64,000 nucleotides of DNA from Candidatus Aenigmatarchaeota archaeon (GTDB lineage Archaea > Aenigmatarchaeota > Aenigmatarchaeia > Aenigmatarchaeales > Aenigmatarchaeaceae), in NCBI GenBank assembly GCA_043814985.1, contig JBDRJK010000019.1:64001-128000 (forward strand), written 5' to 3'. Positions 50,806 to 56,541 of this stretch are shown here, in pieces. The notes under the pieces were generated by a model. The model was not told the DNA's origin. It did not search any database and was given only the letters and a program-made list of their open reading frames with translations. A program made the translations under genes and the position numbers. The stretch's first letter is position 1. Each line of letters opens with the position of its first letter.

Positions 50806-53800
50806 TCACCTTATGACAGACTGTATGATGTACTTTAAGTCCAAAGTACCCCAGTCTGATTTTGCCGGGTCTATCTTGTCCTCGCCGGCCGTGAACTGAA
50901 TTATAATATTTCTGTTGTCTATGACATTGTAATTGTAATCAACCTTTAAATCCTGAAGTGCGTTCATAAGTCTTCTTTCCAGATAACCGCTGTGCCTTGT
51001 TCTCAGTGATGTATCCATAAGTGATTCTCTTCCTGACACAGCACCGAAGAAGAACTCAAAAGGATTCAGACCTGTCTTGAAGCTGTGTGATGAGAAACCA
51101 TGTGCTTCTGGTGAGAGATCTCCTACCTTGAAGTGTGAAAGCGTTCTGTTCCTGTAACCCCTATGAATCCTCTCTCCCAAAACTCTTGCCTGCCCAGTGA
51201 ATGCTGACAGCTGTGTAAGGTGGGTCATTGAACCCCTTGCCCCTGACTTTATCATTGCTATCAGGCAACTGTCTTGTGCTGAACCCTTTATCAGTTTTTC
51301 CACTTCCTGTGTTGATAATGACAACGCCTTTAGTATGTGGCTTTCCAGGCTTGCCTTTGCAGTGCTGCCTGCAAGAATCTCTATCTTGCCTTCATTGTAC
51401 ATTTTAATCAATTCATCAACACTGCTTTTAGACTTCTTAATTATCTTGCCCACGTCATCTATTATTCCGCTTTCCAAATCAACGTCACTGATGCCTATGG
51501 TGAAGCCGTTCTTGTCCAGGAATTTTATGCTTAGTGATGATACCCTATCTATGAACTTGTGGGCAACATCTGTGCCGAACTCCTTCTCTATGACATCAAT
51601 CAGTTTTCCATGCTCAGAACTAATAGCTTTTGAGTCTATAACTCCTCTTTTTAATTCGCCGTTCTTGATAACAACATAACCATCATTCGGGCAGGTTCCC
51701 TTGACACACTTGTCGCAACCACATGCCTTTGCTTTGAATTCTACATAAAGACCCTTGGGAAGCAGAAAACTGAAAATTTCCTTTCCAGTAAACTTATTTT
51801 TCTTGGGCAAGTCTATTATCAATCCTATGTCAGACAACAGCTTGAAGGTTTCTTCCCTTGTCATTTCAACGCCCTTCTTGGTTAACAAATAGCAGCCTGT
51901 TATCAAGCCTTCCTTGCATCCAATTATGGGACCGCCGAACCTCGGAGACCTTATGTGATTCTGCACTTCCATCAGCATCCTTGCCTCTGTTTGGGCTTCT
52001 TCTGTCTGCGGCACGTGCAGGTTCATCTCGTCGCCGTCAAAGTCTGCGTTGTAAGGAGGACATGTGCAGATGTTCAAGGTAAATGTTCTCCACGGAGTTA
52101 CCCTGACTCTGTGTGCCATTATGGACATCCTGTGCAAGGACGGTTGCCTGTTGAATAGGACAACATCATTGTTCTGCAGATGCCTTTCAACAACATAGCC
52201 GGGAGAAATCTCCTCGACAATTTCATCTTTGGTTTCTTCGCTGACCTTCTTCTTCTTACCGTCCGCTCTTATTACATAGTTGGCAGATGGCCACGAAGGA
52301 TATCTATCTACCAGTTTTTTAATTTCCTTGACATTGCTTTCAGTGACAGTGACAGGTATTGTCAGTTCCTTTGCTATGACCATTGGAACGCCAACCTCGT
52401 TAATGCTCAGACATGGGTCAGGTGATATCACAGTTCTTGCTGAGAAGTTGACTCTCTTACCTGTGAGGTTCTGCCTGAACCTTCCCTCTTTTGATTTCAG
52501 TCTGTTGGAAAGGGTTTTCAGCGGCCTTCCAGACCTGTGCCTTGCAGCGGGTATTCCTGACAAAGTATTGTCCATGAATGTTGCAACATGATACTGTAAC
52601 AGTTCCCATAAATCAGCTATTATGAAATCAGGTGCTCCTATCTCGATGTTCTCCTTAAGCCTTCTGTTTATTCTTATTATGTCAACAAGTTTGTGTGTTA
52701 AATCGTCCTCGCTTCTCTCTCCTGATTCTAGAGTTATTGAGGGTCTCATTGTGACAGGCGATACGGGCAACAGCGTTATCAGGAACCATTCGGGTCTGCC
52801 TCCCCTTATGCCTATTATTTCCAGATCCTCGTCAGGTATCTTCTCGAGCCTCTCCCTGACTTCCAATAGAGTCATTATTCTCTCGCCCTCGTAGAATGTA
52901 TACGGCTTCTCAAACTTGATCTTCTCTAATTCCTCTGCACAGTGTGGGCATTTTTTGGGTGTTGAGGTTGTTGATGCTGACACGATTCTGCCGCATGACC
53001 TGCATGCTACTTTCAGTATCTTGTAAATCAGCTTGGAATACAAAACATTAACAACAGGCTTTGTCAGTTCAATGTAGCCAAAGTGGCCGAAGTCGGATCC
53101 CATGCCCTTTCCGCAGGTCCTGCATTTCAAACCAGGGTCTATAACTCCCAGTCTCGGATCCATGACACCTCCCTCCAATGGGAAGCCGTCATTGTCATAA
53201 AGTTCAGGCCTTGCTATTTCCCCTACTGCCATTTTCTTTACCATCTGCGGCGATAGAAGCTTGAACTCAATTGCATCTACCAGTTTTCCCTTTAGGTATA
53301 ATTTCGGATAAATCAACATGCTCTTTAGCTCGTCCAACAAAAGCTTGAAAGCATAGGACATCTCCACTTCAGAGACATCGGTACCATCGCAGACAGGGCA
53401 GATGTTCTTTTCTTGGAGTTTGTTCCATGCAGCAACAAGGCCGCACTTCTTGCATATTGGGACATCAACCTTGTCAGAGCTGAACCTTTCCTTTAAAGTT
53501 AAAACAGCACCATGCGCAATCAGGCAATCCTTTTCCATTTCTCCCAATCTCAGTCCTCCCTCCTTTGCCTTTCCTTCTGTTGGCTGCCTTGTCAACAGTG
53601 TTACAGGACCTCTTGACCTTGCCTGTATCTTGTTCGCGACCATGTGGTCAAGCTTCTGCCAATATACCAAGCCAGTGAATATTTCAACATCAAACTTTTC
53701 ACCTGTTATGCCATTGTAAAGGACTTCCTTTCCGTCAGACCTGAAGCCCAGCTCATTTAGAGTCTTCCTTATTACTTCTTCATTATCGCCTGTGAATGCA

Positions 53801-56541
53801 GTTGCGTTCACACTCTTTCCGTTTAACGCAGAATTTTTTCCAGACAATATTTCCAGAAGCTGTCCTATTGTCTGCCTTGATGGGATGGAATGTGGGTTTA
53901 GTATTATGTCAGGTGTCATTCCCGATGATGTGAATGGCATGTTCTCTTGCGGTTGTATCAGACCCAAAACAGATTTTTGGCCGTGCCTTGAAGAGAACTT
54001 GTCCCCAAGTTCTGGGACTCTCAGATCCCTTACTGATACCTTGACATACTTGTTTCCGTTTGGTGTTTCCGTTAGGATTATTCTGTCAACTACTCCCTTC
54101 TCACCATGCCTCATTGTTATTGAGCTCTCCCTCATGTTTGCAATTCCTGTCATGAGTTCGTTTGCTGACAAAAATCTTAAAGGAGACGTCCTTCCAACTA
54201 AAACATCATCGCTTTTAACAGCAGTTTCAGGCGGTAAAATACCGTCTTCTGCCAGTCTTGAATACTCGTCCTCGTTCCTATATCCTCTGACATCCTTGTC
54301 AGGAATTCCGATTTCATCCTCCTGCCCTCCCCAGTACCTTTTTTCCACAGCAGGATAGACTCTGTAGAACATTGATCTGAACATGCCCCTTTCTATTGAG
54401 GCTTTGTTAATAATAGCGCCGTCAAGAAGGTTGTAACCCTTATGGGAGGCAATTGCAATAACAACATTCTGTCCTGAAGGATGGTGGTTCAATCCAATGG
54501 TGTCAATTGTGTCAGTCTTTACCAAAGGAGTTTGAGAATATATCAAGACATTAGACTTTGTGTCGCTTCTTAGGAAGAAGTTTGTCTGGTAAAGGCTTAT
54601 TGCCTGGTTGATCATCTTTGCTCCGATGCATACCCTGTCTCCCCTGTTGTGCTCTGGGAACGGAATCAGGCTAGCGGGGATTCCTAGAAGTCCTATTATT
54701 GTCATTTCCATATGCGTGTGAGCTGACGTTATCCTCTTCTCATTAAGAGCAACCAAGACATCGTCCTCCTCAGTTGCATCCAGGTATTCTATGCATCCTA
54801 GCTTAGTCAAATCCTGCCAGAAGATTTCTCCCTTGGTAAGCTTGTTCAGAATTTCTTCTGTTAGTTTTGGCCTGCTGTCCTCCAGAATTACCAGGGGCCT
54901 TCTAACTCTTCCTGCGTCCGTGTTTATTCTTACCTCCTTCAGGATGGGATATAAAACAAAATTTACTTCTCCTGATATCTTGCCCTTCCTTCTCTTCTCT
55001 CTCAAATCATTAATTAGTTTTTTAGGATCAGATGTATAGCCTATTGGAATACCGTCCAAGTAAACATCAATGCCTTCATTGTCAAGCTTTATGGCTGCCA
55101 TCAGCCTTTTTTTCTCGCTTTCTGAAAGGCCCTTTGTTATTTCTGCGAAAAGGGACAAGTGCTTTCTCAGACCAATTGTAGGACCTTCTGGTGTTTCTGA
55201 CGGGCAGAACCTGTACCAGTGAGTGGGGTGCAGTTCCCTTGCTGCAAAATGTTCTTGGGTTGATGTCAATGGTGATAGAACTAATCTTAAATGGGATAAT
55301 GTGTCAACGTAATTTTTCCTTTCCAATCTTTGCGAAACTCCTGTCCTTCCTCCTATCCATGCTCCTGTTGCCATTGCAGACGCCAACTGATTTGTAACAA
55401 CATTGGACTCGACAATGGTTTGGACTGGAGGAAGCTTTCCCCTCTTGGCCATTTTCTGGTAGTTGTATTTTATTCTTGCTATCAATCCCCATCTTCCAAC
55501 AAGAATTGACCTGAACAGCAACTCTAACAAATCACCGGATAACTTGATTCTCTTGTTGCCGTAATGGTCCAAGTCGTCCTTTGGTATTATTTCCAAGGAG
55601 AACTCTATTATCTTTTTCACAGCCTTCAGGATGTAGTTGGCCTTTTTCATCTTGTCCTTGGGATCCTGACCCAAGTGCGGCAGTAGGTACTTGTTGATTA
55701 TCTGCTCAACCCTCTGCTTTCTGTACTCCTTCTGCATTATCTTCAGATGCTTTCCAACAAACTCCAAGGCATCTCCTTTTGTCTGGACCTCTGTCTCGTA
55801 AAGGTTTGTATAGAATTCACTTATTATCTTTTCATCCTCCAGACCTTCTACTATGTCCTTGTCCTTTTCCAGGCCAAGTAGTTTTAACAAAACAACTATT
55901 GGCAGCCTGCGTATGTTAGCAAATGAAATGCAAATAGAACCGTCGTTCTTCCTTTCTAAAGTATGTCTTTGAATAAAACCGTTCCTCTCAGAATTTATCC
56001 TTATCAGTTCAGTATAGTTCCCTACATGCTGCTCCTCAACTATCATCCTGTTAGGTGCTATTTCCTCTATTAGAACTAAAACCCTCTCAGTGCCGTTTAT
56101 TATAAAGTATCCGCCGGGGTCGTCTGGATCTTCACCGGCTTCTTCCAGCTCTTCCCTTGACATCTTGCTCAAGGGACATAATTTTGACTTGACCATGATG
56201 GGCATCTCAGCGAGCAACACGCTCACAGGTTCCTGCTCAACCTTGTTGACAATAGGTGTTGCCTCAAGATAGACAGGAGCAGTGTACGAGAAGTCCCTTA
56301 GTCTGGCTTCAATTGGTAGTATTTCCCTTATGCCGCCTTCAGCTTCTTTAACACAGGGTTTGCCAATTGTTATCTTGCCGAATTTTATCACAAGCTCTCC
56401 TATCTCTGGAACCTCGGGCTTGATTTCCTCTATCTGGTCTATTATTCCCTGCAGCCTGTTGTCAACAAACTCATTATAACTATTAATCTGGAATCTGACA
56501 AAGCCAATGTCGTTTTTAAAGGATTTTAAAATTTCATTCAT
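50806..56541 (-). CDS. fused RNA polymerase subunit B (Rpo2) - subunit A' (Rpo1N)
   Basis: One ORF carries B motifs ([47 protein letters not shown]) then A' motifs ([46 protein letters not shown]); junction near 53281-53295. Confidence 0.93.

Follow-up and report, generated by a model that had tools for sequence, protein, structure and literature searches.

Fused genes for RNA polymerase subunits B and A' in an Aenigmatarchaeota genome and its relatives

Separate B and A' (beta and beta') chains are among the most conserved features of cellular RNA polymerases, and the archaeal enzyme is close to eukaryotic RNA polymerase II. To our knowledge, natural fusions of the two largest subunits have been described for only a few bacteria. 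Here, we analyze a gene of a Candidatus Aenigmatarchaeota archaeon that encodes B and A' in one open reading frame (ORF) and lies within positions 64,001 to 128,000 of contig JBDRJK010000019.1 (the window, 64,000 nucleotides; all coordinates below refer to it). The closest natural precedent is bacterial: PMC7483510 names rpoB-rpoC (beta-beta') fusions in Helicobacteraceae and Wolbachia and refers for them to Zakharova et al. 1999 and Lane & Darst 2010. The initial annotation of the window had likewise pointed to such fusions in Helicobacter and Wolbachia. A functional synthetic fusion of the Escherichia coli rpoB-rpoC type is mentioned in a bioRxiv preprint.

Archaeal RNA polymerase subunits have been repartitioned in other ways. 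Passages in PMC5484517 describe the B''/B' split, an unsplit A in Thaumarchaea, Bathyarchaea and 'Ca. Korarchaeum', and a secondary A'-A'' fusion in Pacearchaeota, and they call splits and fusions within archaeal subunit A rare. An engineered Pyrococcus furiosus construct, the rClamp (PDB entry 3QQC), combines B 1053-1115, A' 3-318 and A'' 334-371 through short G/A/S linkers, and passages of the corresponding paper (Martinez-Rucobo et al. 2011, PMC3094117) report that it folded and bound Spt4/5. In a full-text search of the literature outside subscription journals and supplements, we found no description of an archaeal B-A' fusion.

The fused rpoB::rpoA' gene occupies positions 50806..56541 on the minus strand and consists of 1,911 codons followed by a TGA stop, with a predicted product of 215.1 kDa. 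A stop-free translation of 1918 amino acids (50806..56562) results when the minus-strand ORF is begun at TTG. The ATG at 56541 is most likely the real start, because the resulting 1,911 amino acids equal the length of near-identical database proteins, one of them an exact 1,911-residue match, and because an SD-like (Shine-Dalgarno-like) GTGAT lies 3 nt upstream. The first part of the product (53287..56541, minus strand), ending in ...IYPKLYLKG, carries Rpb2 domains 1-7 in order at residues 21-1090 (PF04563, PF04561, PF04565, PF04566, PF04567, PF00562 and PF04560) and a clamp portion with a CxxC...CxxC zinc site (CKKCG...CPVCD in the translation). These features, together with matches to archaeal B chains, identify it as a complete B (Rpo2), which is unsplit at the B''/B' site (~residue 497), as is B throughout the order of the source genome. 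The second part (50809..53283, minus strand), ending in ...QSVIR, carries the Rpb1 domains at residues 1213-1896 (PF04997, PF00623, PF04983, PF05000 and positions 1-66 of PF04998) as well as the catalytic NADFDGD motif (52030-52050, minus strand). It is assigned to A' (Rpo1N) by Rpb1 domains 1-4, the start of domain 5 and this motif, with the remainder of domain 5 (PF04998 positions 67-263) carried by a separate A'' (Rpo1C) ORF, rpoA'', at 49653..50801 on the same strand. The locus therefore has the make-up of a natural fusion of the two largest subunits: one open ORF, the second-largest subunit first, and native termini joined. The initial annotation, which had proposed an uninterrupted B-A' fusion of about 1,910 amino acids with A'' kept separate, was borne out in both respects.

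We consider it highly probable that the cell's sole RNA polymerase is built from a single 215-kDa B-A' polypeptide, A'' as a chain of its own and the small subunits, and we infer that this single chain is both made and active. In the genome, which is 91% complete, neither Rpb2_6 nor Rpb1_2 was found outside the fused gene.

No stop codon is present at the B-A' junction. Codon-by-codon comparison placed two codons of the window (53281..53286, minus strand) at the boundary: AAA (K), where relatives have the stop of B, and CTG (L), where they have the start of A'. The junction in the window reads GGA AAA CTG GTA GAT GCA ATT GAG TTC (G K L V D A I E F), and that of the unfused genome G014 reads AGT GGT TAA ATG ATA GAA TCA ATT GAT TTT (G * M I E S I D F), with length and frame equal to the window. 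In-frame TGA ATG or TAA ATG is likewise found in the unfused G025 and G028, while the genes of other relatives are offset by 1 nt (GGT TAA A ATG) or overlap at ATGA. Abutting or overlapping B and A' genes are the state in most relatives.

A stop-free match spanning the whole junction was obtained, among 41 relatives, in four genomes of the window's genus and in seven of three further genera; within the family, the gapless fusion is present in 11 of the 20 genomes having a match, and the DNA of all 11 was compared at the junction. The former stop codon is AAA, AGA, AGG, AGT or AGC, and its first base is always A, which is consistent with one substitution of A for the initial T of TAA or TGA. 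We propose that in the ancestor the stop of B was directly followed, in frame, by the ATG of A', as is still found in relatives. Substitution of A for T at the first base of the stop (giving AAA or AGA) would have merged the frames with no residue added or removed, and the then redundant A' start codon and Shine-Dalgarno (SD) motif would have decayed afterwards.

Signs of such decay are visible at the junction. In the window, neither ATG, GTG nor TTG occurs at the A' start position of the relatives, the codon there being CTG (53283-53281), and the longest SD-like match upstream of the former start is 3 nt. The former start codon has been replaced in eight of the 11 fused genomes (CTG, CTA, TTA, TTG or AAA). 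An SD-like match of at least 4 nt located 3-18 nt upstream of the A' start, scored against the consensus GGAGGTGATC rather than one derived from this genome's 16S rRNA, was found in 23 of the order's 27 unfused genomes versus none of the 11 fused ones, which form one clade, so that the contrast represents essentially one evolutionary event. As an internal control, the B start of the window retains GTGAT and the A'' start retains AGGTGAT. Because start codon and SD motif are lost at the junction while the B and A'' starts keep theirs, the signals for separate A' synthesis have decayed. The initial annotation had described a junction without stop, linker, ribosome-binding site or in-frame methionine. 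The first three statements hold, and the fourth is correct for the junction itself, the nearest in-frame ATG codons lying 12 codons to either side. The upstream one encodes the M of KSML, a conserved B residue in unfused relatives too, and the downstream one (SPQM) lies within the conserved A' N-terminus.

An open frame of this kind could also result from a sequencing, assembly or binning artefact, in which a base error removed the stop or strains were merged. The window stems from a metagenome-type assembly of 21 contigs (0.81 Mb), and the support described here comes from contigs rather than raw reads. For comparison, contigs assembled independently from four public runs (three studies) were aligned on 52300-54300. 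Those from X1, X2 and X3 span the junction with 0 differences, one of the contig-yielding runs being possibly the window's own source sample. The X4 contig (1,680 nt) represents a strain of ~95% identity that differs at 84 positions and has no gap across 1,679 nt; near the junction, V is changed to I and L to I, and the frame remains open. No indels were listed in the contigs of the four runs, and such assembled contigs show that the open junction is present, a minority stop variant being possible alongside it. The public runs listed for this stretch included no RNA run. The junction is further shared by ten other species-level genomes and by dozens of database proteins of ~1,909-1,916 amino acids with all twelve domains in NCBI, ENA, JGI and Logan, the named ones being Aenigmatarchaeota. 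In addition, the start codon and the SD motif have changed too, which goes beyond a single error. An artefact is thus extremely improbable, and the initial argument that the missing A' start speaks against a simple read error is strengthened by the decay pattern in the fused clade. Shared by contigs of three studies, ten related genomes and the database proteins, the open junction is natural and inherited, not an error.

A further alternative, a read-through pseudogene decaying in a reduced symbiont genome, deserves attention in a genome as small as 0.81 Mb, the size expected of a DPANN archaeon, given that small DPANN-type genomes are prone to gene decay. Between G000 and G002, the ratio of nonsynonymous to synonymous substitution rates (dN/dS) is 0.072 for the B part and 0.062 for the A' part (dS 0.5-0.6). 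When G000 is compared with the two remaining members of the genus, synonymous change approaches or reaches saturation: dS exceeds 1.7 for the B half and has no computable value for the A' half. These values point to strong purifying selection on both halves, and a frame that stays open despite near-saturated synonymous sites and low dN/dS argues for an old and maintained fusion. All catalytic and zinc motifs are present, the gene is the only copy of an essential enzyme, and the fusion is retained across four genera. Against this background, there is hardly any room for a decaying pseudogene.

Modelling of the junction, which the initial annotation had suggested on the basis of an archaeal RNA polymerase structure, yielded a compatible fold. 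An AlphaFold2 model of residues 991-1390, based on an alignment of 32 fused sequences, reached a mean pLDDT (predicted local distance difference test) of 73 and a pTM (predicted template modelling score) of 0.74, with poor fragment ends as expected for a piece excised from a larger complex. Over the junction, pLDDT is 85-87, and the model predicts a strand (IYPKLYLK), a turn (G-K) and a second strand (LVDAIEFKL). The top Foldseek match of the model is 3QQC_A (template modelling (TM) scores 0.73/0.77; root-mean-square deviation 3.0 over 364 columns); archaeal Rpo1N chains rank next. Likewise, the best PDB sequence match of a 301-residue junction piece is 3QQC chain A, aligned in one stretch across the junction. 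The B part of the fused protein aligns with Pyrococcus and Thermococcus B chains up to residue 1114 of 1117, and the A' part aligns with archaeal Rpo1N chains starting at residue 3-6. In the solved Pyrococcus and Thermococcus enzymes, aligned B thus ends 1-3 residues before its C-terminus and aligned A' begins at residue 3-6, which indicates that the B C-terminus and the A' N-terminus are neighbours. We read the junction as a probable tight two-residue beta-hairpin in the clamp, made from an inter-subunit strand pairing. There, the final beta-strand of B would run alongside the opening beta-strand of A', and this arrangement may explain why the join is tolerated.

Even with fused DNA, two proteins might still be made, either by internal initiation (at a non-AUG codon or at one of the two ATG codons that flank the junction at a distance of 12 codons) or by cleavage of a 215-kDa precursor. 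Several points weigh against a single polypeptide and, in part, for this alternative. Besides the choice of SD consensus, the single-clade nature of the SD contrast and the use of assembled contigs mentioned above, an ATG is kept at the former start in three of 11 fused relatives, where internal initiation is conceivable, as it is not at the window's CTG. Moreover, the 12 junction codons are poorly conserved and fast-evolving: their dN/dS is ~0.8-1.0 versus G001 and G003, a value based on very few sites. Rapid change fits a linker and would equally fit a cleavage or processing site. On the other hand, the former A' start in the window has no SD-like motif in addition to its CTG codon, whereas the neighbouring B and A'' starts both have such a motif. 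Initiation at the flanking ATG codons would add B residues to A' or remove its conserved IEFKLLSP N-terminus. The model shows the junction packed closely into a short beta-hairpin, not protruding as a loop, and the solved B-A'-A'' clamp fusion of 3QQC, an analogous join, remains intact. Taken together, we regard the synthesis of two proteins as unlikely. According to the single-polypeptide explanation that we favour, translation would run from the B start to the A' stop. The B:A' ratio would thereby be fixed at 1:1 and the clamp interface assembled in cis.

To place the fusion among its relatives, we used a tree of ~1,000 columns from the B C-terminal and A' N-terminal parts, excluding the junction columns (IQ-TREE quick search, LG+G4). 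The tree has 90 rows, 33 of them fused, and includes 38 of the 40 matched genomes of the order (G031 and G041, with halves on separate or short contigs, were omitted), five fused genomes of families f11, f21 and f38, and 47 genomes of family f15, in which 65 had a match. Each of the 18 f15 genomes left out gave two separate matches; in 15 of them both halves are listed on one contig but occupy distinct open frames, and in G080, G114 and G138 contig ends interrupt the locus. The 11 fused genomes of family f1 form one clade with a support of 100 in the Shimodaira-Hasegawa-like approximate likelihood ratio test (SH-aLRT), nested among 27 unfused genomes of their own order. This nesting identifies the fusion in f1 as a gain, and it bears out the initial proposal of a real, independent archaeal fusion. 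The same fusion occurs in ten relatives, so that the close relatives are not uniformly unfused.

The nearest outgroups of the fused f1 clade are G012 and G025. The exact in-frame TAA ATG of G014 had made this genome a candidate for the sister position. It was rejected, as G014 lies further out on the RNA polymerase tree; its junction serves as an illustration of the likely precursor state. Three further candidates for fusion, G012, G039 and G029, were rejected owing to stop-rich spacers of 198-333 nt that part B from A'. Unusually long B-A' spacers, with script-derived gaps of 207-475 nt, were recorded in G012 (L065), G039 (L066), G029 (L067), G034 (L083) and G037 (L086).

We extended the comparison to 371 genomes of the phylum, 346 of which had a match. 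A full-span, stop-free B-A' or B'-A' junction was found in 63 of these 346 genomes, distributed over 10 of 40 families, and G132 adds a 64th fusion, so that at least 64 are present. In 44 further genomes, both halves share one frame with one or two stops between them. Full-length B-A' fusions number 15 (the f1 clade plus G171, G193, G195 and G305). The remainder are B'-A' fusions of ~1,420-1,500 amino acids, since B is split in those families. Fused and unfused members coexist within genera: in g56, G099 and G105 are fused via a 4-nt difference at the ATGA overlap and nine others are unfused, and in g64 the fused genomes G124 and G125 stand beside seven unfused ones. On the tree, the full-length-B fusion of the window's clade has an origin separate from the B'-A' fusions.

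On the 90-row tree, the fusion state requires at least 10 changes, or eight when branches under SH-aLRT 95 are collapsed and resolved toward fewer changes; such counts do not in general separate gains from losses. The rows were chosen partly by state, but the count could not fall if the unfused rows left out were included. As the same join has been gained or lost repeatedly in the phylum, this recurrence suggests that the fusion is close to neutral or mildly useful and brings no new activity. The use of the fusion as a lineage marker, proposed in the initial annotation, is accordingly restricted: it holds locally (one clade, four genera, 11 of 11 genomes), and phylum-wide the character is homoplastic, having changed at least 8-10 times on the tree of 90 genomes. 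On a wider reading, to which we would give even odds, the B''|B'|A'|A'' boundaries are evolutionarily fluid throughout the phylum, the B|A' boundary having been erased or restored at least 8-10 times through single-base changes of the stop codon or indels of 4 nt, and the resulting 160-215 kDa fusions would serve as a working catalytic core.

The B''/B' split itself varies in the phylum (query 54622-55524), with B unsplit in the window's order and in families including f21-f26 and f36, and split in f12, f15, f16 and others. In some genomes, such as G109, G133 and G134, B'' and B' lie in one frame with a single stop between them. The fused RNA polymerase of G305 (L091), a genome coded f38, falls inside the fused f21 clade (SH-aLRT 98), which may reflect a mismatch in binning or taxonomy, or a transfer.

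A search for fusions outside this group, against 1.84 billion representatives, yielded only P0050, which stands for all Aenigmatarchaeota fusions, P0122, a 153-residue junction-spanning fragment, and the very divergent P0176. The latter, 2,214 amino acids long and 26% identical to the window's protein, comprises Rpb2 domains 1-7 followed by complete Rpb1 domains 1-5 and hence B, A' and A'' in one polypeptide; it is found in Logan only, on one 18.7-kb contig. Another protein, P0124 (455 amino acids), has three Rpb2_7 stretches and five stretches matching the junction query, a pattern suggestive of a tandemly repeated C-terminal clamp portion of B.

Apart from B and A' forming one gene, the locus is the canonical archaeal rpoH-B-A'-A''-L30e-NusA operon, with all genes on the minus strand. 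Upstream, rpoH (Rpb5 C-terminal domain, PF01191) occupies 56546..56833, its TGA ending 4 nt ahead of the B start. Downstream, the ATG of rpoA'' follows 4 nt past the TGA of the fused gene, and genes for an L30e/L7Ae-family protein (49409-49675) and a NusA-like KH protein (49014-49412) come next, both assigned by Pfam. Elsewhere in the window, positions 58765-60585 on the plus strand encode a sensor histidine kinase of 606 amino acids (seven-transmembrane region, PAS, HisKA and HATPase) within this 0.8-Mb genome, and five ORFs in a row at 60899-63167 (106-206 amino acids) have no Pfam match.

The fusion shows that the C-terminal end of B can be connected to the N-terminal end of A' without a linker, and structural and assembly work gains from it a single-chain core supplied by nature. 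Its recurrence, even within genera, provides matched fused and unfused pairs to probe effects on assembly or stoichiometry. If the subunit boundaries are indeed fluid, the phylum would supply a natural series for studying co-translational assembly, stoichiometry, clamp dynamics and a possible preference for fusions in small-genome symbionts. For genome analysis, fused proteins match two marker families at once and can disturb marker-gene counts and phylogenomic pipelines. The confusion anticipated in the initial annotation is already apparent in the databases, where the 1,911-residue form is labelled "subunit A'" at NCBI and "subunit B" at JGI.

Compared with the bacterial rpoB-rpoC fusions, as far as the cited passages describe them, the archaeal fusion likewise joins adjacent operon genes head to tail, in the same order and from the C-terminus of beta/B to the N-terminus of beta'/A'. 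Unlike them, it is archaeal and known from sequence, it joins B to A' alone, which corresponds to the N-terminal two thirds of beta', with A'' separate, and no linker is present. It would work in the manner of the Helicobacter and Wolbachia fusions but arose independently of them: its best PDB matches are archaeal Rpo1N and Rpo2, and its clade is nested among unfused archaeal relatives. In the engineered 3QQC clamp, too, the B C-terminus is peptide-bonded to the A' N-terminus, through a junction (PKLNLSEGGKVIGSIEF) two residues longer than the natural one. That protein is a man-made construct of 436 residues that covers domains and contains G/A/S linkers, whereas the window holds a natural gene for whole subunits.

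The other Aenigmatarchaeota B'-A' fusions (~1,420-1,470 amino acids) join the same pair of termini and arose by stop loss between abutting genes. In these, B is split and only B' is fused, while the window's B is unsplit, its protein has 1,911 residues, and junction length and sequence differ. With its B''/B' site continuous, the window gene lies outside the ~1,430-residue B'-A' class. The route differs as well, some B'-A' fusions showing a 4-nt indel at the ATGA overlap and the window's clade a stop-codon substitution. The archaeal repartitions of A or B outlined in PMC5484517 show that evolution can shift core subunit boundaries while function is kept. Those repartitions, called rare in the passages cited, concern boundaries within B or within A, whereas here the B-A boundary is affected, recurrently within one phylum. 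What the sequence comparisons mark as new is the full-length-B variant and its separate, single-substitution origin. In summary, the fusion introduces no new principle but represents a recurrent natural experiment on RNA polymerase core architecture.

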